This document shows, in pieces, positions 1 through 13,843 of a stretch of 13,843 nucleotides of DNA (positions are counted from its first letter, which is position 1; every line of letters begins with the position of its first letter). Location: UHGV virus genome UHGV-0253101. The stretch is one strand, 5' to 3'. The stretch is from a virus. The position numbers were made by a program, and so were the translations under genes. The notes under the pieces are model-generated. The model had not been told where the DNA came from, did not search any database, and saw nothing but the letters and a program-made list of their open reading frames with translations.

Positions 1-138
<138 letters not shown>

Positions 139-142
139 CTAG
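139..142. repeat. CTAG immediately flanking the IS5 end; probable 4-bp target-site duplication
   Basis: IS5 is known to make 4-bp duplications at YTAR targets, and CTAG abuts the inverted repeat. The second copy would lie at the other IS5 end, outside the window. Confidence 0.45.
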
Positions 143-296
143 AATAGGCAGAGCTAAGCTGTTCGTCTAATTTTGACAGACGTTCGTTATCGCAGATTTT
201 ATGTTCGATTGCTGTCGAAGCCTTTTGGCAGTCAAAGCTGGCTGCAAATGCACCCGGCGATGCCACTAACAATGATGCCAGTAGGATATTTTTCAT
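139..296 (-). pseudogene. Small secreted protein gene interrupted by IS5 after about 53 codons
   Basis: The ATG at 296 (complement of 294..296) has a GGAG about 7 nt upstream. It encodes MKNILLASLLVASPGAFA (signal-peptide-like, AFA-AS cleavage site) then SFDCQKASTAIEHKICDNERLSKLDEQL. The reading frame runs into the IS5 inverted repeat at 138 and stops inside IS5 at 111 (tracked ORF 111..323). The N-terminus tentatively resembles LprI/DUF1311-type periplasmic proteins. Confidence 0.5.
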
Positions 297-590
297 ATTC
301 ACTCCATAAATACAAAAGCGCATTACTATAGCACTTAACCGATCGCTTATCTCGCCCGTTCGTCATTCTTATCTAACCAGAACATGCGGCTGCCACAGCA
401 CATGTCGAGGATCGCTGCATGTCCAGTCACCGGTTGCCTCCTTTGCGCAATATCGCATTCAGATATTTGTTTTGATTCACTGATGGAAACGAGTTTCGCT
501 TAAGTAATTCCTCTCTCGATGGCATTGGCTTTACGCGTTGGCGAATAATCATTTCTGCCGGAAGAATGCCGGGATTGTATGCAAGTCCTC

Positions 591-881
591 TCATGATTTA
601 CTCTCAACGAACTGGTCAATAGCCATGCTAAGTGACATACCTAAAGTTTCGATATGCTGCTGAATATCCTGTAGCGTCTGCGCCTGAGATAACAGGATTT
701 CACGGTTGCATAACTCTTTAACCAGATGCTCAAACTTGCTGTAATAACCGATACGACTTAGTGTTTCTTTCCCTGCATTCTCGCCTTCTTTGATAATTCC
801 TCTTTCGCTAAGAATCAGATCGTGTTTGGTTCCGGTAATAACGTATTTTCCGAGGTCGATGTTTAGCTTCATTGTTTTCAT
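591..881 (-). CDS. hypothetical protein (about 97 aa), second gene of a two-gene minus-strand operon
   Basis: Part of tracked ORF 591..1031. The ATG at 881 ([14 protein letters not shown]...) has GAGGAA 8-12 nt upstream. An alternative ATG at 899 ([11 protein letters not shown]) sits 2 nt from the upstream gene's stop in an ATGACTGA arrangement. No recognisable motif. Confidence 0.5.
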
Positions 882-891
882 TGTTAATTCC

Positions 892-1185
892 TCAGTCATT
901 ACTGATAGCGCCATAGCGTGAGCGGTAATTACGCAGGCGAGGGTCAATTTCAGGGAAGTGGGTATATGTGGCTTTGCGGAATGGGCGGATTGATGTCTGG
1001 TAAATTCGCTCGCGTTCTTCTTTCTCTGCAAGCCATATACAATGGCGAAATTCCTTTTCCTCTTTCGTTTCCTGCGGTAGCGACATTATCCGGTCGTAGT
1101 TTTTTCTGAATTTATCCAGCACCTCCGATACGGAATTGCCGGAACAGCGGCGCGCGTCATCCTCACCATACAGAGGCGCTGGCAT
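892..1185 (-). CDS. hypothetical protein (97 aa), first gene of the two-gene minus-strand operon
   Basis: Tracked ORF with a strong AGGAGA Shine-Dalgarno 5-6 nt upstream of the ATG (complement of 1183..1185). Charged, Arg/Lys/Glu-rich protein with no recognisable catalytic motif. Confidence 0.55.
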   Translation of the reverse strand: MPAPLYGEDDARRCSGNSVSEVLDKFRKNYDRIMSLPQETKEEKEFRHCIWLAEKEERERIYQTSIRPFRKATYTHFPEIDPRLRNYRSRYGAISND

Positions 1186-1254
1186 GTTTTTCTCCTGATT
1201 AAATTGCGTGAATAGCGTGACGAGGGAAGGGGAGAGTTACTGGTGCAAAGGGTA

Positions 1255-1362
1255 TATATAACGAGCGTGTTCATCGGCTACATCGGTACTGACTCGATAG
1301 GTTCGCTTATCAAACGCTTCGCTGCTAAAAAAGCCGGAGTAGAAGATGGTGGAAATCAATAA
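1255..1362 (+). pseudogene. S: 3' remnant of a lambda-type holin S gene (last ~35 codons only)
   Basis: The frame ending at TAA 1360..1362 translates to ...[35 protein letters not shown], matching the C-terminal tail of lambda S as I recall it, and overlaps the R start as in lambda. An in-frame TAG at 1213..1215 and unrelated sequence upstream of about 1255 exclude a full-length holin. No plus-strand ORF of at least 60 aa ends here in the track. Confidence 0.7.
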
Positions 1363-1822
1363 TCAACGTAAGGCGTTCCTCGATATGCTGGCGTGGTCAG
1401 AGGGAACTGATAACGGACGTCAGAAAACCAGAAATCATGGTTATGACGTCATTGTAGGCGGAGAGCTATTCACTGATTACTCCGATCATCCTCGCAAACT
1501 TGTCACGCTAAACCCCAAACTCAAATCAACAGCAGCCGGGCGCTATCAGCTTCTTTCCCGTTGGTGGGATGCCTATCGTAAGCAGCTTGGTCTGAAAGAC
1601 TTCTCTCCCAAAAGTCAGGACGCTGTGGCATTGCAGCAGATTAAAGAGCGTGGCGCTTTACCGATGATTGACCGCGGTGATATCCGTCAGGCTATCGACC
1701 GTTGCAGCAATATCTGGGCTTCACTGCCGGGCGCTGGTTATGGCCAGTTCGAGCATGAGGCTGACAACCTGATTGCAAAATTCAAAGAGGCTGGCGGAAC
1801 GGTCAGAGAGATTGAGGTATGA
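1346..1822 (+). CDS. R: endolysin, lambda R-type lytic transglycosylase (158 aa)
   Basis: Protein [51 protein letters not shown]... is near-identical to lambda R as recalled. Its start overlaps the S remnant stop. Confidence 0.95.
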
Positions 1823-2256
1823 GCAGAGTGACCGCGATTATCTCCGCTCTGGTTATCTGCATCATCGTCTGCCTGTCATGGGCTGTTAATCATTACCGTG
1901 ATAACGCAATCGCCTACAAAGACCAGCGGGATAAAGCCACAACCATCATCGCTGATATGCAGAAGCGTCAACGTGACGTAGCAGAACTCGACGCCAGATA
2001 CACAAAGGAGCTTGCTGATGCTAACGCGACTATCGAAAGTCTCCGTGCTGATGTTTCTGCTGGTCGTAAGCGCCTGCAAGTCGCCGCCACCTGTGCAAAG
2101 TCAACGACCGGAGCCAGCAGCATGGGCGATGGAGAAAGCCCAAGACTTACAGCAGATGCTGAACTCAATTATTACCGTCTCCGAAGTGGAATAGACAGGA
2201 TAACCGCGCAGGTTAACTACCTGCAGGAGTACATCAGGACTCAGTGCCTGAAATAA
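1819..2256 (+). CDS. Rz: spanin inner-membrane subunit Rz (i-spanin), 145 aa
   Basis: ATGA overlap with the R stop. N-terminus [31 protein letters not shown] is a transmembrane segment, followed by a coiled-coil-like region as in lambda Rz. Confidence 0.9.
2012..2194 (+). CDS. Rz1: spanin outer-membrane lipoprotein subunit Rz1 (o-spanin), embedded in Rz in the +1 frame
   Basis: 60-aa ORF wholly inside Rz. Lipobox-like LLVVSAC followed by a proline-rich stretch ([16 protein letters not shown]), the architecture of lambda Rz1. Confidence 0.8.
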
Positions 2257-2287
2257 TTTTTTTGCAAATCACAAAGTCCATTTAATG

Positions 2288-2311
2288 AGCCTCGCGATGC
2301 GGGGCTTTTTT
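2288..2311 (+). terminator. rho-independent terminator-like hairpin downstream of Rz
   Basis: agcctcgc-gat-gcggggct forms an 8-bp stem (one G-U pair) with a 3-nt loop, followed by a T tract. Confidence 0.5.
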
Positions 2312-2458
2312 ATGTCCGCAGTAAACGCGCTTCACACGCGCGACTTATGAACACAGAACCTTTCAGGATGACCCTTGAGGATGCCGGTTTGGTGATCGGT
2401 ACCTTTCTGTGGGCCGGAATCCTGTGTGACAAGGTTCATCACTAAAAGGTAATTACTG

Positions 2459-2989
2459 ATGAAGTACCCAACAGTTATTGTCAATGGTGTGTCCGTTCGT
2501 GTTGATGAGGATGGACGCTACAACTTAAACGATCTCCATGCAGCAGCAGTTGCAAATGGAGAGGCTACAGAGCAACAGCGCCCAAGCCAGTTTTTGCGTA
2601 GCGCGCAGATAAAACGCTTCATCAAAGCACTGGAGGCCAAAGTGCAAAAAAGCACTTTGGAACAAATTCAACCACTTAAAATAATCAAAGGTGGTGCAGA
2701 ACCAGGTGTGTGGGGTGTTGAACTTCTGGCAATCAGATATGCAGCATGGATTAAGCCGGAATTTGAAATCGAAGTTTATGAAGTTTTCAAAACGGTTGTC
2801 CGTCTCGGCGTTGGCGCAATGTCCCGTCTGAATAGAATCGATCACATCATCAATACTGAAACCAAAGCGATAAGCCAGTGCGCAAGACAAATGGCTAAGT
2901 GGGGTGTTGGTGGGCGAAAAAGATTGCTTCATGTTGCACGTGAGAGAGCGGCAAATGAAGTGCAAATGTATTTGCCCGGGATGGTGTGA
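2459..2989 (+). CDS. KilA-N domain protein (176 aa), putative antirepressor or DNA-binding accessory protein
   Basis: AAGG ribosome-binding site before the ATG. N-terminal half (IVNGVSVRVDEDGRYNLNDLHAAA ... GVWGVELLAIRYAAWIKPEFEIEVYEVF) follows the KilA-N pattern of an N-terminal beta-rich segment then a conserved W-x-LA-x-YA-x-W-x-P-x-F block. C-terminal half has no recognised motif. Confidence 0.7.
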   Translation: MKYPTVIVNGVSVRVDEDGRYNLNDLHAAAVANGEATEQQRPSQFLRSAQIKRFIKALEAKVQKSTLEQIQPLKIIKGGAEPGVWGVELLAIRYAAWIKPEFEIEVYEVFKTVVRLGVGAMSRLNRIDHIINTETKAISQCARQMAKWGVGGRKRLLHVARERAANEVQMYLPGMV

Positions 2990-3094
2990 TTTCGCAGGTT
3001 AATCCGAGCAGTCCTTCAGTGAGGCTGCAATAATGCTTTATTCGTATGAAGACGAAGGGTAATCTGTAGACTCTGATTATCTAATGGAAGGTTT

Positions 3095-3301
3095 ATGATG
3101 GACAATTATTTTAAATCTGGCGATAACCGAGTATCTGATTCTGAGCACCAGCGTTTAGTGGCTACCAAAGCAGCTCTTGAAATTATCAAGGCCGCCGTAT
3201 CTGCCCCTACCCATGCGAAAAACGTGTCTTATGATTTGGAGGAGGCAATAAAATATCTTCCACGGTTGACTGATGCTATTCAGGAAACGATTGGCAAATA
3301 G
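3095..3301 (+). CDS. hypothetical small protein (68 aa)
   Basis: GGAAGG ribosome-binding site about 5 nt upstream of the ATG. Predicted helical and hydrophilic. Lies in a visibly AT-rich stretch. Confidence 0.45.
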   Translation: MMDNYFKSGDNRVSDSEHQRLVATKAALEIIKAAVSAPTHAKNVSYDLEEAIKYLPRLTDAIQETIGK

Positions 3302-3353
3302 CATTTGATTTTAGTTTTATTATCTCACCTTAAATATGAGTGAGATTAATACA

Positions 3354-3377
3354 AAGCTACCTACGAGTAGCTTTTTA
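3354..3377 (+). terminator. possible rho-independent terminator after the 68-aa ORF
   Basis: aagctac ... gtagctt inverted repeat (7-bp stem, 6-nt loop) followed by tttt. Confidence 0.4.
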
Positions 3378-3441
3378 ATGGCTTATACCTTACACGGGAT
3401 AACTTAACTGATATCCCCACAAGCGGATAAAGAGATTCTCA

Positions 3442-3567
3442 ATGTCCAACATCTACCAAATCACGTTAACCACCCAAACAGGCGAAACCGTTACGAGCAA
3501 GACGTCACGATTTCAGCATGAGTTGGTTAACGGCTTTGTGCCGCTTGTGATCGAGACGGGAGAGTGA
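3442..3567 (+). CDS. very small ORF (41 aa), speculative
   Basis: ATG...TGA encoding MSNIYQITLTTQTGETVTSKTSRFQHELVNGFVPLVIETGE with only a weak AAGAG upstream. The frame stays open for about 21 more codons past the TGA, so it may be a nonsense-interrupted longer gene. Confidence 0.2.
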   Translation: MSNIYQITLTTQTGETVTSKTSRFQHELVNGFVPLVIETGE

Positions 3568-3697
3568 CTGTATTTCTCTCCCGACAATGTGAAGCGCATA
3601 CAGTTCACGCCAGAATTGAATGATGAAGCGTGATAAGTGGCTATTTTGTGGTATAGGTTTATGCGCTAAAACAATCAATTAGCTCAGTCAATGATCT

Positions 3698-4222
3698 CTA
3701 TTGTCCTGCAACTTGTTTAGTGAGTCTTAGGATGATGCTGCCAAGAATAGCTATGAATTTTTCACGATTATTGGCATCTGGACGGTTAAGATTCAGCTCA
3801 ATGTCTCCAACTTTTATGCCGAATCTTGCTGAGTTAATGAGATCTTCCTGACCACCTCGGCTAATAAATGTTCGTAATGATTCAATTTCTGCGTCAGTTA
3901 TTTCCGGGTTGTCTATTTGATGAGAGCGAACATTTCTTATTCTATTTAGGCGTTTAAGTTCTGCGACGGAGTGTTCATTTAGGCCGAGGTTGGCAGCTAG
4001 CTGAATTTTTGCGGCATAGGTCATGGTTAAGTTTTCACCAAATCCATCAAATAGATTTTGGTTACCTACAGCGGCGCAACAAAATGCCTCAATCATTGCT
4101 TCTGTAATCAGATGTACTCTTAAAACCAAACCAATATCATCTTCAGTATTTACTAACCTTTCAATTCGTTGCCAAGTTGCTTCGTTCATTATGAACTTTG
4201 ATTCAAAAATTTCAGGATTCAT
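3698..4222 (-). CDS. HEPN-like protein (174 aa); candidate abortive-infection or toxin-type defence gene
   Basis: Tracked ORF antisense to the late operon. An R-N-V-R-S-H motif (Rx4H, residues 96-101, coded at 3920..3937) fits the HEPN Rx4-6H ribonuclease signature, in a predicted all-helical protein. Visibly AT-rich compared with the flanking terminase gene. AGGT about 6 nt upstream of the ATG. Confidence 0.6.
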   Translation of the reverse strand: MNPEIFESKFIMNEATWQRIERLVNTEDDIGLVLRVHLITEAMIEAFCCAAVGNQNLFDGFGENLTMTYAAKIQLAANLGLNEHSVAELKRLNRIRNVRSHQIDNPEITDAEIESLRTFISRGGQEDLINSARFGIKVGDIELNLNRPDANNREKFIAILGSIILRLTKQVAGQ

Positions 4223-4249
4223 TTATTTACCTTATCAGCAGGGGAAAAT

Positions 4250-4777
4250 ATGGCGCTCACTGACAAACAAGAAATGTTCTGTCGCGAGTACCTCATCGAT
4301 TTAAACGCCACGCAAGCGGCTATTCGGGCGGGGTACAGCGCAAAAACAGCCAACCGTACTGCGTCCGAAAACATGTCAAAACCTGACATACAACTCAGAA
4401 TCTCCGAATTGAAAGCACAACGCAATGACTCTGTTGGAATAAATGCAGAATATGTACTTAATCGCCTTATTGAAATCGACCAGATGGATGTGCTCGACAT
4501 TCTCCTGCAAAACGGTGAGTTAAAGCCCATTAAAGACTGGCCTAAGGTATGGCGCACAACGTTATCAGGAATGGATGTTGTGGAGATGGTATCCGCAGAT
4601 AGTGCAGCACTCCTGAAGAAAATCAAATGGCCTGATAAGGTTAAAAACCTCGAACTTCTTGGTAAGCATGTTTCTGTTCAGGCGTTTAAAGAACAAGCTT
4701 CTCACGAACTAACAGGCAAAGACGGCGGCGCAATCCAGATTGAAACATCACCGATGAGCACTCTATTCGGAAAATGA
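4250..4777 (+). CDS. terminase small subunit (175 aa), Terminase_2-like N-terminal DNA-binding domain
   Basis: N-terminus MALTDKQEMFCREYLIDLNATQAAIRAGYS is the characteristic small-terminase helix-turn-helix signature. ATGA overlap with the large terminase start. Confidence 0.9.
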   Translation: MALTDKQEMFCREYLIDLNATQAAIRAGYSAKTANRTASENMSKPDIQLRISELKAQRNDSVGINAEYVLNRLIEIDQMDVLDILLQNGELKPIKDWPKVWRTTLSGMDVVEMVSADSAALLKKIKWPDKVKNLELLGKHVSVQAFKEQASHELTGKDGGAIQIETSPMSTLFGK

Positions 4778-6099
4778 CCTCGATTAATCCTATCTTTGAA
4801 CCGTTCATTGAGGCGCATCGCTACAAAGTCGCCAAAGGCGGTCGAGGTAGCGGTAAGTCATGGGCAATTGCGAGGCTTCTTGTTGAAGCGGCGCGTCGGC
4901 AGCCTGTGCGTATTCTTTGCGCTCGTGAGCTGCAAAACAGTATCAGCGATTCGGTAATCCGGTTGCTTGAAGACACCATCGAGCGTGAAGGATATTCGGC
5001 TGAGTTTGAAATTCAGCGTTCCATGATTCGTCATCTCGGAACGAATGCTGAATTCATGTTCTACGGCATCAAAAACAACCCGACGAAGATTAAATCGCTC
5101 GAAGGCATTGATATCTGTTGGGTGGAAGAAGCTGAAGCGGTAACGAAGGAATCATGGGATATCCTGATACCAACCATCCGCAAGCCATTTTCCGAAATAT
5201 GGGTGAGCTTCAACCCGAAGAACATACTCGACGATACCTATCAGCGGTTCGTCGTAAATCCTCCTGATGATATTTGCCTGCTGACGGTGAACTACACCGA
5301 CAACCCGCACTTTCCTGAAGTTCTCCGTCTGGAGATGGAAGAGTGCAAACGCAGAAATCCGACACTGTATCGTCACATCTGGCTTGGTGAGCCAGTAAGC
5401 GCAAGTGATATGGCAATCATCAAACGTGAATGGCTTGAAGCCGCAACCGATGCGCACAAGAAACTCGGATGGAAAGCGAAAGGCGCTGTTGTCTCTGCGC
5501 ATGACCCGTCAGATACAGGGCCGGATGCTAAAGGTTATGCATCGCGTCACGGTTCGGTTGTTAAGCGCATTGCCGAAGGTCTGCTGATGGACATCAATGA
5601 AGGTGCTGACTGGGCAACTTCGCTGGCGATTGAAGACGGTGCTGACCATTACCTGTGGGATGGTGATGGTGTTGGTGCTGGCCTACGCAGACAGACAACG
5701 GAAGCGTTCTCCGGCAAGAAAATCACCGCCACGATGTTCAAGGGCAGTGAATCGCCATTCGATGAAGATGCGCCGTATCAGGCCGGAGCATGGGCTGATG
5801 AAGTCGTACAGGGCGACAACGTTCGCACTATTGGTGATGTGTTCCGCAATAAGCGAGCGCAATTCTATTACGCGCTGGCTGACAGGCTGTATCTGACATA
5901 TCGGGCGGTTGTTTACGGTGAGTATGCAGACCCCGACGACATGCTGAGTTTCGACAAAGAAGCGATAGGCGAGAAGATGCTGGAGAAGCTGTTTGCAGAA
6001 CTGACGCAGATTCAGCGCAAATTCAATAACAACGGGAAGCTGGAGCTAATGACTAAGGTCGAAATGAAGCAGAAGCTCGGTATTCCATCTCCTACGTGA
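4774..6099 (+). CDS. terminase large subunit (441 aa), probably C-terminally truncated
   Basis: Walker [10 protein letters not shown] near the N-terminus, then a nuclease-domain-like C-terminal half. Ends ...[10 protein letters not shown]-stop, whereas homologues as I recall them continue with an SP-D/N-L-ADAL segment. Confidence 0.9.
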
Positions 6100-6100
6100 G

Positions 6101-7456
6101 GTGAATAAATGCCGATTGTTGGCTGGTATCGGTGGTGTCAACTCAAACGCTCCGAGCGTAAATGACATCGGCAATACGCTTCAGCTTATCAGGCAGAACA
6201 ATGATATTGAGCGTTCAGGCGCTAACAATGTTGGGCTGACTGCTTTGCAAGGCCTTTCAGGTATTGCGGGTGTTTTTCAGCAGGAAAAGCAGGCTCAGCG
6301 GCAGAAAGAATTTCAGCAGGCATACGCTAAAGCTTATGCGTCTGGTGATCGCGGTGCTTTGCGTCAGTTGGCTACTCAATATCCAGACCAGATTGAATCT
6401 GTTCGTAAAGGCATGGGATTCATTGATGAAGACCAGCGTAATTCTATCGGCACCTTAGCGGCTGGCGCACGCCTTGCGTCATCGTCTCCAGAAGCAATGC
6501 AATCATGGCTGCAAAACAACGCCAAGGAACTGACTCGCGTCGGTGTTGACCCTAACAGCGTTGCTCAGATGTATCAGCAGAATCCTTCAGGATTTGGTGA
6601 GTTTGTTGATCACCTTGGGATGGCTGCGCTTGGTCCGATTGATTACTTCAATGTTCAGGACAAGATAGCTGGTCGTGAGATTGACCGAGGCAGACTGGCA
6701 GAGACAATCCGCAGCAATCAGGCTGGCGAGGCGCTAACAGCGCGTGGTCAGAATATCACGATGCGCGGTCAGGATTTATCGATGCAGAGAGCATCAATGA
6801 AAGGGGCGGTTGGGAATAATGAGCGTACAGTTCAGTTAGCAGATGGCAGAACTGTAACGGTAGGCGGGAAGCTTCACGGCGCTGGGGCTAATGCGTTCTA
6901 CGAAGGTATCGACAACGAGGGGAATATGGTTCGCGTTCCTGCTGGTTCTATTGCCGCTCCGGCTACATCGGCAGCAAGCGCGCAGAATTACGCAATGAAG
7001 AAAGATCTTGATGCAATTTCTGGTGCATCAATTGACGATCTTGGCTTCATGACTGGCATTACAGGCTCTTCAGGTTCTCCTGCTCTTGGTGCAGATATTC
7101 GTAGCCGTGCATCTGGTGGTGATCAGAGGAAACTATACAACGCTGCACAGCGAATCCAAGGAAAGATGCAGAATCAGGGCATTGCAGCAGCCAGAGACAT
7201 GGGGGCATCCGGTATCAACACCGTTGCAGAAGCAAAGATGTATTTTCAAGGTATGCCACAGGTTGATTTCTCAAGCCCTGAAGCACTGCAACAATCAATG
7301 CGCGACATTCAGCAATATACCGACAATTACAACCAGCAATATAACGTTAATGTCGGTAATGGCGGGAAGAAATCATCAAGGCAACAGCCAGCTACTCAGC
7401 AATCAGCAGGAGGTAGCTACACGTCAAAATCAGGCATTCAATTTACGGTGGAATGA
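6101..7456 (+). CDS. putative DNA-ejection (injection) protein, P22 gp20-like (451 aa), N-terminus uncertain
   Basis: Starts at a GTG one nucleotide after the terminase stop. Gln/Ala/Gly-rich with no catalytic motif. Size and position (second-to-last late gene before the immI-like region) match P22 gene 20 (about 471 aa). Confidence 0.5.
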
Positions 7457-9294
7457 TGAAAGTAACTGCAAACGGTAAGACATTTACCTTCCCTGATGGT
7501 ACGAGCACGGAAGATATTGGCACCGCCATTGATGAGTATTTTGCTGGTCAGGCTGTTCAGCAACAAACAGTTAATCAGGCCAATAATGCACCAACACGGG
7601 AAGAACCATCATTGATGCAACAAGCTGGCGATTGGCTCACTGGTGGTCAAAGTGCAGGGCAAATTGCAGAACAGGCTGGTCGTGGTCTGGTAAACATACC
7701 ATTTGACGTATTACAGGGCGGCGCAAGTCTGATTAATGCAATCAGTCAGGGGCTTGGTGGCCCCAAGGTTTTGGATGATGTTTATCGTCCAGTAGACAGA
7801 CCGACAGACCCCTACGCTCAAGCTGGAGAAACAATTGGCGGGTATTTAGTTCCAGGAGTTGGAACGGCAGGAAGCATGGCTATTGGATCACTGGCAGAGG
7901 CCGCAAATCAGAAAGGTGATTTCGCACAAAATGCAGCTAAAAATGCCGGAGTTAACCTTGCCGCTCAGGGTGTTCTTTCCGCAGCAGCAAAGGGAATAGG
8001 GCGTGGAATAACGGCTATAAAAGGTGATATTGCGCCAGAAGTGGCAAAGAAAATTGCCACATCAGAATCGATGGGCGTGACACCAATGACATCTGATGTT
8101 ATCCCGCCGAAAAATGCTTTCACTCGCGGACTTACTCAGGATGCTGAGGGGGCTTTGCTCGGGACAGGCTCAAAGCGAGCGGAGCAATATGCAACGCGTA
8201 GTAAGCTGGTAAGCAATTATTTTGACCGTTTTGGTGAGTACAACCCTGATGATGTGGTGAGATCTCTGACCACCACGTTAAGGGGACGGAAGGATGCCGC
8301 TGGCGCTGTTATCAATGACGTCACCAATAAAATGGGTAATGCCGCAGTTGATACCACAAATACCATGAATGCTCTGAATACAGCGATCGCAAGACAGGAA
8401 CGGCTTGGGACTTCTGCCAATCAAAACCTGCTTACATCCTTGCGTAACCTACGTGAAGAATTAGCAAACCCTGCAACTGATTTGGATGTTACGTTTGATC
8501 TCTTGCGCCAGCACAGAACAGCATTTAGATCTAATGTTCAGGGAGATGCCATGGTCTTCCCCAACCAGGCAAAAGCAGCTACCAATATGGTAGAGAATGC
8601 AATGTCAAAAGACCTTCGTAACGCAGTTGCCAAAAACCTCGGTGCTTCAGACGCAGCAAAATACCTTAAAGCAAATTCCGATTATGCAAACGTTTATAAT
8701 AAGGTGCTTAATAAAAACATTGCTAACAAGCTCAACAAGGCAAGCAGTGAAGCCAGTCCTGAACTTATAAATACTGTTGTATTAAGCAGAAAACCATCTG
8801 ACGTGAAACGAATCTGGAGCGCATTGGATGATAAAGGGAAAGATGCTATGCGTGCAGCTTACGTCAGCAAAATAGCGGAAAAGGCCGGTGACTCTCCAGC
8901 CAAGTTCATCACGGAAGTTAATAAGCTGAAATCTCAGTCAGGCGGTGAAATTTACAACACTATTTTTTCTGGAAAGCACATGAAAGAACTTGATGCTCTT
9001 CATGAAGTTCTACAGCAAGCAGCAAGATCAGACACCGCAAATGTAGTAACTCAGACGGGGCAATCGCAAGCCAACAGGATAAGGACGATTGGCGCAACTA
9101 CGACTCTTGGCGTATCAATGGGGCTTGAGGCTGGTTTCGGTGCAATGATGCGCTTGTATGAATCCAAAGCAGCAAGGAATGCGCTCTTACGTCTGGCAAA
9201 CACTAAAGCTGGAACGCCAGCTTATGAAAGAGCGCTAAATCAGGCGGCTACTGCCGTGCGCCCGCTCTTAGTTAACGAAGCTACCCGGCAGTAG
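7453..9294 (+). CDS. putative DNA-ejection (injection) protein, P22 gp16-like (613 aa)
   Basis: ATGA start/stop overlap with the upstream gene. N-terminus [31 protein letters not shown] resembles prophage DNA-transfer proteins as I recall them. Size (613 vs about 609 aa) and position match P22 gene 16. Confidence 0.55.
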
Positions 9295-9316
9295 CACTGT
9301 AAGCCAAGGACGGCAT

Positions 9317-9799
9317 TTATTTTATAGTTTTTATGAATTCTTTATTAAATCCCTTTGCTTCTCCGGGGTATCTTCCGAAGACAATTTTTATAAAAACAGA
9401 AAAAATAAAGATAGCAACGCTTAACAACAATTGCAGTATCATTGGAACCCAAAGAACTACAGGCTCTATATTCATGAAACCAAATATTCTTCCGGCGATC
9501 ATGGCGAAGTACCACACTGTTATCAGCAAACTTAGTGGCATATGAATTACTGATATTACCAATCCAAGAGCATCAGTAATTCTGTTTTCAAATTTTTCAG
9601 GGGAAAACTTTTCTTTAAGGTAATTCAGTGCGCAGGCCTCATTCTCTGGATTTTCAGCATTTTTCCCTATAGCAATAGAAATCTCAGATATCCTTGATTC
9701 AATTCTTTTACGTTTAATAAAACTAGAAAAAAAGAACCACGCAATCTGCAACCCTATCCCCAGAAATAGAGTTGCGGCAACTAGCACAGCGTAACTCAT
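9317..9799 (-). CDS. multi-pass membrane protein (161 aa); candidate SieA-like superinfection-exclusion protein, by position
   Basis: Internal start of tracked ORF 9317..10027 ([24 protein letters not shown]...) with AGGAGG upstream. About three hydrophobic helices (residues ~3-25, ~83-105, ~112-140) around a charged loop. Strongly AT-rich. Occupies the slot between gene 16 and mnt that holds sieA in P22. Confidence 0.55.
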
Positions 9800-9841
9800 A
9801 GAATCAGACACACCAACCTCCTTAGTTTTGCGCAGGATACC

Positions 9842-10207
9842 ATGAAAAAAGTTAACATTGGAAACGTACCAAAGATGCTCGTTCCGCTCTTTGAGAGCGG
9901 TACAATTGTGTTTTGTAGAGACTTTCCAGAATGGCAACGCCTGCATCAAAAACTTGGCGTTGACGTGCATGACTCGGACGCCAACGGAGCGTCTCATACA
10001 ATGAGTAGCGAGAATGGTGTTTTGCATGTGATAGGCGTGTTCAATGGCAAACTATCTACTATTGCCCATGAGTGCGCTCACATGGCATTCGATATCTGCT
10101 CAAGGGTAGGTGTTGATGTTGAACCAGGAAGAGCCAACGAGACTTACTGCTACTTAATGAGCAGGCTTGTTGAGTTCTGCGAGCGACATATCAAAAAGCC
10201 GGAGTGA
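9842..10207 (+). CDS. small HExxH-motif protein (121 aa), possible minimal zinc metallopeptidase-like protein
   Basis: Tracked ORF divergent from the membrane protein gene, with a 42-bp gap between them. H-E-C-A-H at residues 76-80 (10067..10081) within [11 protein letters not shown]. Several Cys/His residues. No confident family assignment. Confidence 0.5.
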
Positions 10208-10220
10208 CCCGGCTTGATTA

Positions 10221-10400
10221 TTACTTTTTGCTGTCTGGAGTTCGCTTATCCAATACCCAGCCATGACCTGGCTTTGTTGTTGGTGGAAGCCTTTCGTTGT
10301 CCTTGACGGTTGCAAAATTGTCTTTCTTACCGCCGCGTGGGCCAACTTCTTGGTATATTCCGCCGTTTTTTCCTGTGTTTTCACCTGGTTTTTTCGCCAT
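10221..10400 (-). CDS. small basic Lys/Gly-rich protein (59 aa), tentatively YjzC-like
   Basis: Internal ATG of tracked ORF 10221..10415 with GAGG about 7 nt upstream. Protein MAKKPGENTGKNGGIYQEVGPRGGKKDNFATVKDNERLPPTTKPGHGWVLDKRTPDSKK. Family resemblance is from memory and uncertain. Confidence 0.4.
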   Translation of the reverse strand: MAKKPGENTGKNGGIYQEVGPRGGKKDNFATVKDNERLPPTTKPGHGWVLDKRTPDSKK

Positions 10401-10490
10401 GATATACCTCAACATACACCCGTTATTGGGCGATTAAATATTGATCTCATTTTATAAGTAGTCAATATGGCCCAGGTAAATGCAAAAATT

Positions 10491-10516
10491 AACCCACCTT
10501 CAGGTGGGTTTTTTGT
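10491..10516. terminator. rho-independent terminator-like hairpin overlapping the mnt stop codon, possibly bidirectional
   Basis: aacccacc-ttca-ggtgggtt is a perfect 8-bp stem followed by tttt on the plus strand. On the minus strand the same stem is followed by aattttt. Confidence 0.55.
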
Positions 10517-10751
10517 ACAAATCCTTCAGCGTATCAAACACCATCTTCTTAACAAGCTCTGACTGCTCATCAGCGATGCGTTCCGCATCGTCTCGATAGC
10601 CTGAAATTTTGGATGGCTTTGATACAGCATCAGTCACTATCTGAACTAATTCTGAATTAAGAGAGCGGCCATTGGATTTGGCTCGCTGTTTTAGTTTTTC
10701 CTTTAATTCGTAAGGTAGCCGCAGATTAAATTGCGGGTCATCTCTTCCCAT
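10500..10751 (-). CDS. mnt: Mnt repressor (83 aa), Arc/MetJ-type ribbon-helix-helix
   Basis: Protein MGRDDPQFNLRLPYELKEKLKQRAKSNGRSLNSELVQIVTDAVSKPS...DDAERIADEQSELVKKMVFDTLKDLYKKPT matches P22 Mnt closely as recalled, in length and sequence. Confidence 0.9.
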   Translation of the reverse strand: MGRDDPQFNLRLPYELKEKLKQRAKSNGRSLNSELVQIVTDAVSKPSKISGYRDDAERIADEQSELVKKMVFDTLKDLYKKPT

Positions 10752-10814
10752 TCTTGATGCCTCGCTTTTGTGAGTGGATCGGCATCTTATTATCTGCTGG
10801 TTGCATCCTCAATA

Positions 10815-10829
10815 AGACCACAGTGGTCT
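10815..10829. promoter_or_regulatory. putative Mnt operator: 15-bp palindrome AGACCAC-A-GTGGTCT
   Basis: Near-perfect dyad (7-bp arms) between the divergent mnt and tailspike starts. Resembles the P22 mnt operator core (GGTCCAC-G-GTGGACC as recalled). A partial half-site CACTGTGG lies at about 10852..10859. Confidence 0.5.
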
Positions 10830-10897
10830 CTTTGTTTGATTAATAATGCATCACTGTGGCAATGCTGCGGCGATTCCTTGTATCTGGAGCAAATTAA

Positions 10898-13843
10898 ATG
10901 ACAGACATTACAGCCAATGTTGTAGTGAGTATGCCTTCGCAACTCTTCACTATGGCGCGTTCTTTTAAAGCCGTAGCCAATGGCAAAATTTATATCGGTA
11001 AAATTGACACTGACCCGGTAAATCCTGAAAACCAGATTCAGGTTTATGTAGAGAACGAAGACGGTTCTCACATTCCTGTTTCGCAACCAATAATCATTAA
11101 CGCTGCTGGATATCCGGTATATAACGGACAGATTGCCAAATTCGTTACCGTGCAAGGCCATTCTATGGCTGTTTATGATGCGTATGGTGCGCAGCAGTTC
11201 TATTTTCCTAATGTGCTGAAGTATGATCCTGATCAGTTACGGCAGCAATTAGAAGACCCAGATGGAGCGAATAAATACCCAAAACTTCAGATAGCAAGAT
11301 GGAGAGACAGTTATGATGTAAGAGGTTGGGGGGCTATTGGTGATGGTGTTCATGATGACACATCAGCTCTATCAGAATTACTTTCTGTTGCAACAGGTGG
11401 TGAAAAGATAGATGGGCGAGGGCTTACTTTTAAAGTATCAACTCTTCCAGATGTCAGTCGATTTAAAAATGCTCGTTTTTTATTTGAGAGAATACCGGGT
11501 CAGCCTCTTTTTTATGCTTCTGAAGATTTTATCCAGGGAGAGTTATTTAAAATTACAGATACACCGTGGTACAACGCCTGGACGCAGGATAAAACGTTTG
11601 TATATGACAATGTCATCTATGCGCCTTTTATGGCTGGAGACCGCCATGGTGTAAATAACCTCCATGTTGCATGGGTTCGCTCAGGAGATGACGGGAAGAC
11701 CTGGACAACGCCGGAATGGCTTACAGATTTACATGAAAACTATCCCACAGTTAACTATCACTGCATGAGTATGGGGGTTGTCAGAAATCGCCTTTTTGCT
11801 GTAATTGAGACGCGGACCGTGAGCGGAAATAAACTGCAGGTTGCAGAGTTGTGGGATCGCCCAATGAGTCGCAGCCTTCGCGTTTATGGTGGTATAACGA
11901 AAGCAGCAAATCAGCAAGTCGCTTATATTCGCATTACTGATCACGGATTATTTGCTGGTGATTTTGTCAACTTCTCAAACTCTGGTGTTACAGGTGTTAC
12001 CGGGAATATGACGGTGACTACTGTTATTGATAAAAATACTTTTACAGTTACGACGCAAAATACCCAGGATGTGGATCAGAATAACGAGGGTAGATACTGG
12101 AGTTTTGGTACATCATTTCACTCGTCACCATGGAGAAAAACCAGTCTTGGAACTATTCCTTCTTTTGTTGACGGAAGCACTCCTGTTACTGAGATTCACA
12201 GTTTTGCGACGATTAGCGATAACAGTTTTGCTGTTGGCTACCATAATGGTGATATTGATCCACGCGAGCTTGGGATACTCTATTTCTCTGATGCTTTCGG
12301 TTCTCCTGGTAGCTTTGTTCGCAGACGCATACCTGTAGAATATGAGGCGAATGCATCTGAGCCATGTGTAAAATATTATGATGGCATTCTGTATCTGACG
12401 ACCAGGGGGACATTAAGTACTCAACCCGGTAGTTCATTGCACAGAAGCTCTGATTTAGGTACATCATGGAATTCTCTTCGCTTCCCAAATAATGTTCATC
12501 ACTCAAACCTTCCTTTTGCCAAAGTTGGCGATGAGCTGATTATTTTTGGCAGTGAGCGCGCATTTGGTGAGTGGGAAGGAGGAGAACCTGATAACCGTTA
12601 TGCAGGAAATTATCCAAGAACATTTATGACCAGAGTTAACGTCAATGAGTGGAGTCTGGATAATGTAGAGTGGGTTAATGTTACTGATCAGATTTATCAG
12701 GGCGGAATAGTTAACTCTGCGGTTGGTGTTGGTTCAGTTTGTATCAAAGACAACTGGCTGTACTACATTTTCGGTGGGGAAGACTTTCTAAACCCATGGA
12801 GCATAGGGGATAACAACAGAAAATATCCTTATGTTCACGATGGTCACCCGGCTGATTTGTATTGTTTCAGGGTGAAAATTAAACAGGAAGAATTTGTTTC
12901 AAGGGATTTTGTCTACGGAGCCACTCCTAACAGAACGCTTCCTACTTTTATGTCGACGTCAGGCGTGAGGACGGTTCCTGTACCCGTTGATTTCACAGAT
13001 GATGTTGCCGTCCAGTCACTGACTGTCCATGCAGGTACATCAGGACAAGTTCGCGCGGAAGTCAAACTTGAGGGTAATTACGCCATTATTGCGAAGAAAG
13101 TACCGTCTGATGATGTTACCGCTCAGAGATTAATCGTTAGCGGCGGTGAAACAACGTCTTCAGCAGATGGTGCAATGATAACGTTGCATGGTTCCGGAAG
13201 CAGTACTCCACGTCGCGCGGTATATAACGCACTCGAACATCTTTTTGAGAACGGAGATGTTAAACCTTATCTTGATAATGTAAATGCTCTTGGTGGTCCG
13301 GGAAACAGGTTCTCGACAGTTTATCTTGGCTCCAATCCTGTGGTTACCAGTGACGGAACATTAAAGACAGAGCCGGTCTCTCCTGACGAAGCATTGCTGG
13401 ATGCCTGGGGTGACGTCAGGTATATCGCTTATAAATGGCTGAACGCTGTCGCTATAAAGGGGGAAGAAGGGGCGAGGATACATCATGGTGTAATCGCGCA
13501 GCAACTTCGTGATGTTCTTATTTCTCACGGACTCATGGAAGAAGAAAGCACAACATGCCGCTATGCGTTTCTTTGCTATGACGATTATCCCGCAGTATAT
13601 GATGACGTCATTACTGGCCAAAGGGAAATGCCGCTGACTGATAATGACGGGAGCATCATTGTTGATGAGGATGATAATCCAGTGATGGTAATGGAAGACA
13701 TCATTGAGCGCGTTGAAATAACGCCAGCAGGATCTAGATGGGGGGTCAGACCTGATCTCTTATTCTATATCGAGGCGGCATGGCAGCGCAGAGAAATAGA
13801 AAGAATAAAAGCTAGGTTAGACTTAATAGAAGGGAAGCACTAA
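10898..13843 (+). CDS. tailspike protein (981 aa): P22 gp9-type head-binding domain, sialidase-like domain with two Asp-boxes (probable endosialidase) and C-terminal intramolecular-chaperone autoproteolytic domain
   Basis: GGAG about 8 nt before the ATG. N-terminus [50 protein letters not shown]...VLKYDPDQ is collinear with the P22 gp9 head-binding domain. Asp-boxes SGDDGKTW (11681..11704) and SSDLGTSW (12446..12469) fit the S-x-D-x-G-x-T-W consensus. The C-terminal ~160 aa ([10 protein letters not shown] ... [13 protein letters not shown] ...) resemble the peptidase S74 chaperone domain of endosialidases and some tail fibres. Confidence 0.9.

Follow-up and report, generated by a model that had tools for sequence, protein, structure and literature searches.

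A truncated holin gene as the probable scar of a deletion within a P22-like prophage integrated at the lambda attachment site

Introduction

Partial lysis cassettes are familiar from the cryptic prophages of Escherichia coli K-12. Rac has rzpR and rzoR without a holin and an endolysin, and DLP12 has the partial cassette essD-rrrD-rzpD. Among P22-like prophages, the K1-specific CUS-3 of E. coli RS218 is complete and resides at argW. The idea that grounded prophages become domesticated is well established. In phage lambda the endolysin R accumulates in the cytoplasm, and holin function is needed for it to reach the peptidoglycan (PMC10865782). In laboratory holin-defective mutants of lambda, such as the lambda Delta(SR) lysogens, the loss of S function keeps the cytoplasmic endolysin off the peptidoglycan, and the inner membrane remains intact (PMC10865782).

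The locus described here lies in a stretch of 13,843 nucleotides from UHGV virus genome UHGV-0253101, the whole of which is called the window. The element is P22-like, with virion genes of the Sf6/HK620/CUS-3 type and a lambda-type S-R-Rz-Rz1 cassette, and the holin gene S of this cassette is reduced to a 3' stub. The stub itself is already known, since the copy in the genome of E. coli EC931 is flagged as a pseudogene in RefSeq. Comparison with related phages and prophages indicates that it is very probably (probability about 0.93) the right-hand scar of one deletion inside a P22-like prophage that is integrated at the lambda attachment site.

Results

The holin gene of the cassette is a 3' remnant of the lambda family. 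The cassette has the following features.

1255..1362, plus strand, holin S pseudogene remnant: codons 73-107 and the stop codon; the dual start, TMD1, TMD2 and the beginning of TMD3 are missing
1346..1822, plus strand, R endolysin: lambda-type lytic transglycosylase, 158 aa, full length
1819..2256, plus strand, Rz i-spanin: 145 aa
2018..2194, plus strand, Rz1 o-spanin lipoprotein: 58 aa, in the +1 frame inside Rz
2287..2317, plus strand, terminator-like hairpin and T-run 3' of the lysis cassette
For comparison, in HK75: S at 34118-34441, R at 34425-34901

When the S frame is translated over 1216-1362, the product from the tyrosine codon at 1255-1257 onward equals residues 73-107 of the holin (107 aa) encoded by the prophage of E. 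coli SW4848, and residues 1-72 are absent from the window. The remnant matches profile positions 73-99 of 99 in Pfam PF05106 (E 4.3e-5) and 77-107 of 107 in TIGR01594 holin_lambda (E 7e-9). Neither profile is matched over its full length, and the TIGR01594 score of 35.8 bits falls below the cut-off of 55.05 because the match is partial. The stop codon of S (1360-1362) lies beyond the ATG of R at 1346, so that the two genes overlap by 17 bases, the same length as in HK75 and SW4848; the remnant has the position of a lambda holin gene, just upstream of the endolysin gene and overlapping it. A TAG at 1213-1215, in frame with the remnant at a distance of 42 bases from 1255, closes the frame upstream.

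The point at which homology to S begins is sharply defined. A megablast search against 50,697 phage records found that homology to S-R-Rz starts exactly at 1255 in every match listed, including HK544, mEpX2, HK446, HK75, HK97 and HK022, with 96-97% identity. Alignments with HK75 and SW4848 show no relation to S in the sequence upstream of 1255. A preliminary description, drawn up from the letters of the window, had proposed that about 35 codons of a lambda-type S gene remain, that they overlap the start of R as in lambda, that the sequence upstream of about 1255 is unrelated, and that the TAG lies in frame; these points all agree with the comparisons above. It had also suggested that alignment to the lambda S-R junction would locate the breakpoint of homology, which falls at 1255, and that the absence of a significant match to S would speak against the proposal; the agreement with S goes far beyond what chance would give.

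The stub lacks the characteristic parts of a holin. A GGAG stands 9 bases before a GTG at 1243, and this GTG opens a 39-codon frame (1243-1362) that runs into the stub; the arrangement is probably fortuitous. Three transmembrane segments were not found: with a window of 19 residues, hydrophobicity in the 39-aa frame nowhere exceeds 1.6. The dual-start motif (Met1-Lys2-Met3) that gives holin and antiholin was not found either: the S gene of SW4848 begins MKMPEK, and the equivalent region is deleted in the window. PGAP labels the EC931 copy 'phage holin, lambda family; incomplete; missing N-terminus'.

In contrast to the holin gene, the endolysin and spanin genes are intact. Residues 1-158 of R align with residues 1-158 of lambda lysozyme (PDB 1AM7), and 154/158 are identical. 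The full-length protein includes the AWSEGT segment around Glu19, the catalytic residue of lambda R, and this segment is the same in both proteins. Pfam and NCBIfam assigned R to no family with an E-value under 0.01, and its identity was settled by the PDB match together with a match to phrog_90 endolysin in PHROGs (E 3.2e-63). It has the same N-terminus as lambda R, and a hydrophobicity scan found no hydrophobic window and no signal or SAR segment; R is therefore predicted to be a cytoplasmic, holin-dependent endolysin. Rz (PF03245, E 2.9e-36) is identical to SW4848 in its DNA and has an N-terminal transmembrane segment, with a hydrophobic window at residue 1. Rz1 (PF06085, E 2.1e-20) has AAGGAG at 2004-2009 ahead of its ATG at 2018, and its lipobox cysteine lies in the segment ...LLVVSAC. 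The anchor of Rz and the embedded lipoprotein Rz1 are those of a two-component spanin. HK75 has an annotated terminator at the place equivalent to 2287..2317.

Within the window the lysis cassette is holin-less and has lost its native late promoter and Q. A search of the window for a replacement holin by hydrophobicity gave only SieA, the anchor of Rz and the signal of Rz1, and SieA is the only small multi-TM protein encoded there. A holin from another prophage may act in trans, as the search covered the window only. A simple consensus scan of the plus strand from 850 to 1346 found no sigma-70-like promoter. R-Rz would be transcriptionally silent, unless read-through or fortuitous transcription occurs. 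R should not be exported, because it has no export signal and no holin is present to release it.

The sequence to the left of the stub belongs to an early-left operon on the opposite strand, preceded by an IS5 end. The features of this flank and the junction are listed below.

1..138, minus strand, left end of an IS5: first 23 transposase codons, reading leftwards out of the window; interrupts the LprI-family gene
139..296, minus strand, LprI-family prophage gene: 5' fragment (~52 codons) cut by IS5
427..594, minus strand, DUF2737 gene of a P22-type early-left operon
591..881, minus strand, DUF5405 gene of the early-left operon: intact in the window
892..1185, minus strand, abc2, anti-RecBCD protein 2: 97 aa, full length
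1199..1257, minus strand, 3' remnant of a phage ssb gene: last 18 codons and the stop codon, left flank of the deletion
1255..1257, deletion junction 1: TAT, 3 bases common to both parental flanks

The assignments rest on PF11043 for abc2 (E 4e-62, profile positions 1-97 of 97), PF17399 for the DUF5405 gene (E 1.8e-5) and PF10930 for the DUF2737 gene (E 2.1e-33). Positions 139-632 are 99.8% identical to EC931, in which the gene at this place encodes a 232-aa 'lysozyme inhibitor LprI family protein'; a gene call for the fragment, 111-296, was taken from an identical contig (L017). Positions 1100-1257 are 98.7% identical to HK75 23810-23967, which holds abc2 and the 3' end of ssb, and the minus-strand translation of 1199-1257 is the C-terminus of the HK75 SSB. 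In ssb the breakpoint cuts the acidic DDDIPF motif close to the C-terminal end of the phage protein, directly after DDD. What is left upstream of abc2 is the IPF of SSB, a 15-residue extension and the stop codon.

The two remnants meet in a clean switch. In a three-way alignment, confirmed against SW4848, homology to the left flank ends at 1257 and homology to the right flank starts at 1255. Both flanks are found in HK75 in the same order and orientation, with the breakpoints at 23967 and 34334, 10,367 bases apart. The early-left part of this interval in HK75 holds ssb, erf, a small recombinase-associated gene, kil, cIII, a Nun/N-type gene, pL and the operators. The rest holds the repressor gene, cro, cII, O and DnaB-type replication genes, the nin region, Q, pR' and tR', and the interval also includes S codons 1-72. 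For the window the left flank was taken from HK75 and the right flank from SW4848, whose early-left arm represents another mosaic allele and lacks this ssb; the deleted length is therefore an estimate, 10.4 kb in HK75 coordinates and ~13 kb in SW4848 coordinates. To the right of the junction, positions 1255-6094 are 100.000% identical to SW4848 from S codon 73 onward (4,840 bases, 0 mismatches), and this identity shows that the deletion is recent.

The element is a defective prophage at the lambda attachment site. In EC931 (NZ_CP049118.1) the remnant is flanked by ybhC and ybhB in the attachment region of lambda (gal-bio), next to a tyrosine integrase gene. E. coli SW4848 carries an apparently complete P22-like prophage at the same ybhC/ybhB site with the same integrase accession, and this prophage also shares the protein accessions of R, Rz, the KilA-N protein, the gp16-like protein, the SieA region, Arc/Mnt and the tailspike. 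The common site and integrase indicate that the event occurred inside one element and was not a chromosomal rearrangement. SW4848 has the repressor, replication, Q, S and portal-to-gp7 genes that are missing from the window. By this comparison the remnant sits at an attachment site with an integrase and is without modules needed for induction, replication and virion assembly.

Two further deletions have removed the head genes. They are seen upstream of the region that encodes the ejection proteins and the tailspike.

6093..6117, plus strand, deletion junctions 2a and 2b: 25-base island between a truncated terL and a gp20-like ejection gene
10898-13843, tailspike gene: endosialidase, with the Pfam domains End_N_terminal, End_beta_propel, End_tail_spike and Peptidase_S74

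The island is identical to the gp4/gp10 boundary of SW4848. On its left terL encodes 441 aa instead of 471 aa, and on its right the gp20-like gene is without its first ~9 codons. The presence of gp4/gp10 sequence between the scars indicates that the head region was lost in two deletions, of ~5.2 kb and ~3.3 kb, which together removed the genes for portal, scaffold, coat, gp4, gp10, gp26, gp14 and gp7, head-completion and tail-needle genes included. The microhomologies are TA (6093-6094) and GATT (6114-6117). At all three scars the microhomology is thus 2-4 bases, which would fit homology-independent illegitimate joining. Positions 6111-13781 are 99.96% identical to the distal late region of SW4848. 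The tailspike shares ~98.5% identity with its counterpart in CUS-3, a K1-specific phage, and since it is an endosialidase of this type, the host lineage is probably K1-encapsulated. In EC931 an acyltransferase fragment follows the tailspike gene.

The same scar is found in independent assemblies. Among 5,426 complete E. coli genomes, the junction occurs in EC931 only, with 100% identity. The 36-mer that spans junction 1 is carried by EC931, OZ040824.1 (GCA_964053445.1), contig k141_54542 of ENA ERZ27315542 and OGZA01007817.1, which are two finished chromosomes, one ENA metagenome-assembly contig and one metagenome contig of a JGI collection. Contig k141_54542 is 100% identical to window positions 1-12599. 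Loci that span both positions all have both scars. In the assembly collection the truncated 441-aa terL is indexed in 397 blocks, which shows that the remnant is common in sequenced samples. A 28-base junction sequence had no match among one-genome-per-species contigs, in which E. coli is represented by a single genome.

The IS5 insertions in the carriers are younger than the junction. The reverse complement of positions 1..138 starts GGAAGGTGCGAACAAG and is 98% identical to the annotated IS5 of EC931. The insertion at 1-138 is shared by the window and the ENA contig. In EC931 and OZ040824.1 the LprI-family gene is free of IS5; there the element lies at 628-632 and splits the DUF5405 gene instead. 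Since the IS5 sites differ and the junction is identical, the insertions are later and independent, and the carriers are independent genomes, each with the same older deletion by descent. No IS5 copy touches junction 1.

Two loci were set aside. The sequence of OGZA01007817.1 (1850-4866) switches at window position 1935, within Rz, to a Rac-type Rz followed by trkG and a ynaK-like ParB-domain gene; it is probably an assembly chimera or a real inter-prophage recombinant through Rz and was not used for inference. NZ_CP082824.1 (1569028-1586658) has abc2 and R-Rz within 3.6 kb and was considered as a recurrence of the deletion, which was rejected because its S gene is an intact 107 aa. In that E. 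coli prophage region a truncated terL abuts abc2, exonuclease and ssb genes that are all frameshifted, and a second copy of the early region follows; it is either a different rearrangement or a low-quality assembly.

Discussion

The S stub is best explained as one end of a large internal deletion. The breakpoint coordinates, the identities of the flanks, the TAT microhomology, the set of genes missing by comparison with HK75 and SW4848, and the scar in independent assemblies are direct observations. The event would have been an illegitimate, homology-independent joining at TAT that fused ssb, 18 codons before its end, to S codon 73. Such a join would run from the early-left operon on the minus strand to the late operon on the plus strand, with the loss of everything between, and could have arisen by RecA-independent illegitimate recombination or by slippage. 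After all three deletions, the remaining element would be non-inducible, non-replicating, headless and non-lysing.

The preliminary description had regarded the breakpoint as a deletion or recombination junction in a cassette that is holin-less and probably lysis-defective, with R, Rz and Rz1 intact. The junction is now seen as one end of a ~10-13 kb internal deletion, and R at its full 158 aa and the PF03245 and PF06085 matches confirm that the other genes are intact. Within the window the cassette is indeed holin-less, and the predicted lysis defect would be the least of the defects of the element. The scale of the deletion was hidden from that description, and the lesion is not local to the lysis cassette. 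The test of lysis on induction that it proposed would be moot, because nothing inducible appears to remain.

A more ambitious interpretation, which is unlikely, is that the remnant has been domesticated. According to it, a successful E. coli lineage carried a K1-specific P22-like prophage, which the three deletions may have grounded. Exactly the lethal or mobile functions (kil, the start of the holin, replication, induction and heads) would have been removed, and genes useful to the host (the endosialidase tailspike region, SieA, Mnt and Abc2) would have been kept. The remnant, possibly with R-Rz-Rz1, would then be under selection as a domesticated module.

It is very unlikely that the junction arose by recombination between two phages or prophages, as a mosaic or inter-prophage exchange, rather than by internal deletion. 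Lambdoid genomes are mosaic, and the best matches of the two flanks differ, the left being an abc2-ssb of the HK75 type and the right SW4848, whose early-left arm is ~96% identical at abc2 and is without this ssb. However, the flanks fit a single colinear map (int ... abc2-ssb ... S-R-Rz ... tailspike) as in HK75. The element in EC931 is bounded by ybhC/ybhB like SW4848 and has an identical integrase, and no chromosomal segment has been lost or inverted. Mosaic joints usually lie at gene boundaries and leave the gene sets complete, whereas here two genes are cut mid-codon and the joint removes all essential early functions.

Maintenance of the stub and R-Rz-Rz1 by selection is highly improbable. 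The cassette could be domesticated and expressed from a new upstream signal with a holin provided in trans, or the 39-codon frame could give a functional S C-terminal peptide. The element does persist in a well-sampled lineage, as seen from the 441-aa terL in 397 blocks, and the GGAG before GTG 1243 could serve such a frame. On the other hand, with 0 differences in 4,840 bases from the intact prophage, decay has had no time to set in, and no signal of purifying selection is seen. The genes R, Rz and Rz1 look intact because the deletion is recent and not because they are used; with zero divergence from SW4848, their intactness says nothing about selection or retained function. In addition, pR' and Q are gone, there is no promoter-like site before R, the 39-aa frame is without a transmembrane segment, and IS5 insertions are accumulating in the element.

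Deletion by IS5, either as an adjacent deletion or by recombination between two IS5 copies, was rejected as most improbable. IS5 copies are indeed present in the remnant: the window has one at 1-138, and EC931 and OZ040824.1 have one at 628-632. However, neither IS sequence nor an IS end is seen at 1255-1257, where ssb switches directly to S with TAT in common, and the positions of IS5 vary among carriers with the identical junction, so the insertions postdate the deletion. A sequencing or assembly artefact has next to no probability: the window does resemble the end of a short-read metagenome contig, starting inside IS5 and being 100% identical to k141_54542, and one metagenome contig with the junction (OGZA01007817.1) is chimeric or recombinant further downstream, but two finished chromosomes, EC931 and OZ040824.1, have the identical junction in its proper chromosomal setting.

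The S stub, read as the scar of an internal deletion, is an ordinary product of prophage decay and is of little consequence except for getting the annotation right. The proper name for the stub is holin pseudogene, and the region should be described as a defective prophage remnant and not as a lysis-competent cassette. The exact breakpoints and the short microhomologies at the three scars make it a clean, datable example of illegitimate deletion, and the junction sequences are useful as lineage markers of the carrier clone.

The cassette resembles the lambda-type S-R-Rz-Rz1 cassettes of lambda, HK97, HK022, HK75 and mEpX2. It has the same gene order, the 17-base overlap of S and R and the position of Rz1 within Rz, and the DNA identity over 1255-2300 is 96-97%, with R matching lambda lysozyme at 154/158 residues. 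It differs from them in that S is without codons 1-72 and the upstream pR'-tR'-Q is replaced by the tail of ssb on the opposite strand.

Two P22-like prophages are close relatives of the element as a whole. The prophage of SW4848 has the same site and integrase, is identical from S codon 73 to terL codon 440, and is 99.96% identical from gp20 to the tailspike. Unlike the remnant, it includes a complete 107-aa S together with Q, the repressor, the replication genes and portal-gp7, and the early-left arms are different mosaic alleles. CUS-3 is ~98.5% identical in the endosialidase tailspike, ejection, sieA and mnt region, whereas the element in the window lies at lambda attB and carries three deletions.

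Like the Rac and DLP12 remnants of K-12, the locus is a partial lysis cassette stranded in a defective lambdoid prophage after internal deletion. Unlike them, it has an intact endolysin and intact spanins with only the holin cut, and its deletion is very recent, with no sequence decay. Laboratory holin-defective mutants such as the lambda Delta(SR) lysogens keep the whole inducible phage, whereas this natural remnant has lost induction, replication and head assembly together with the start of its holin.
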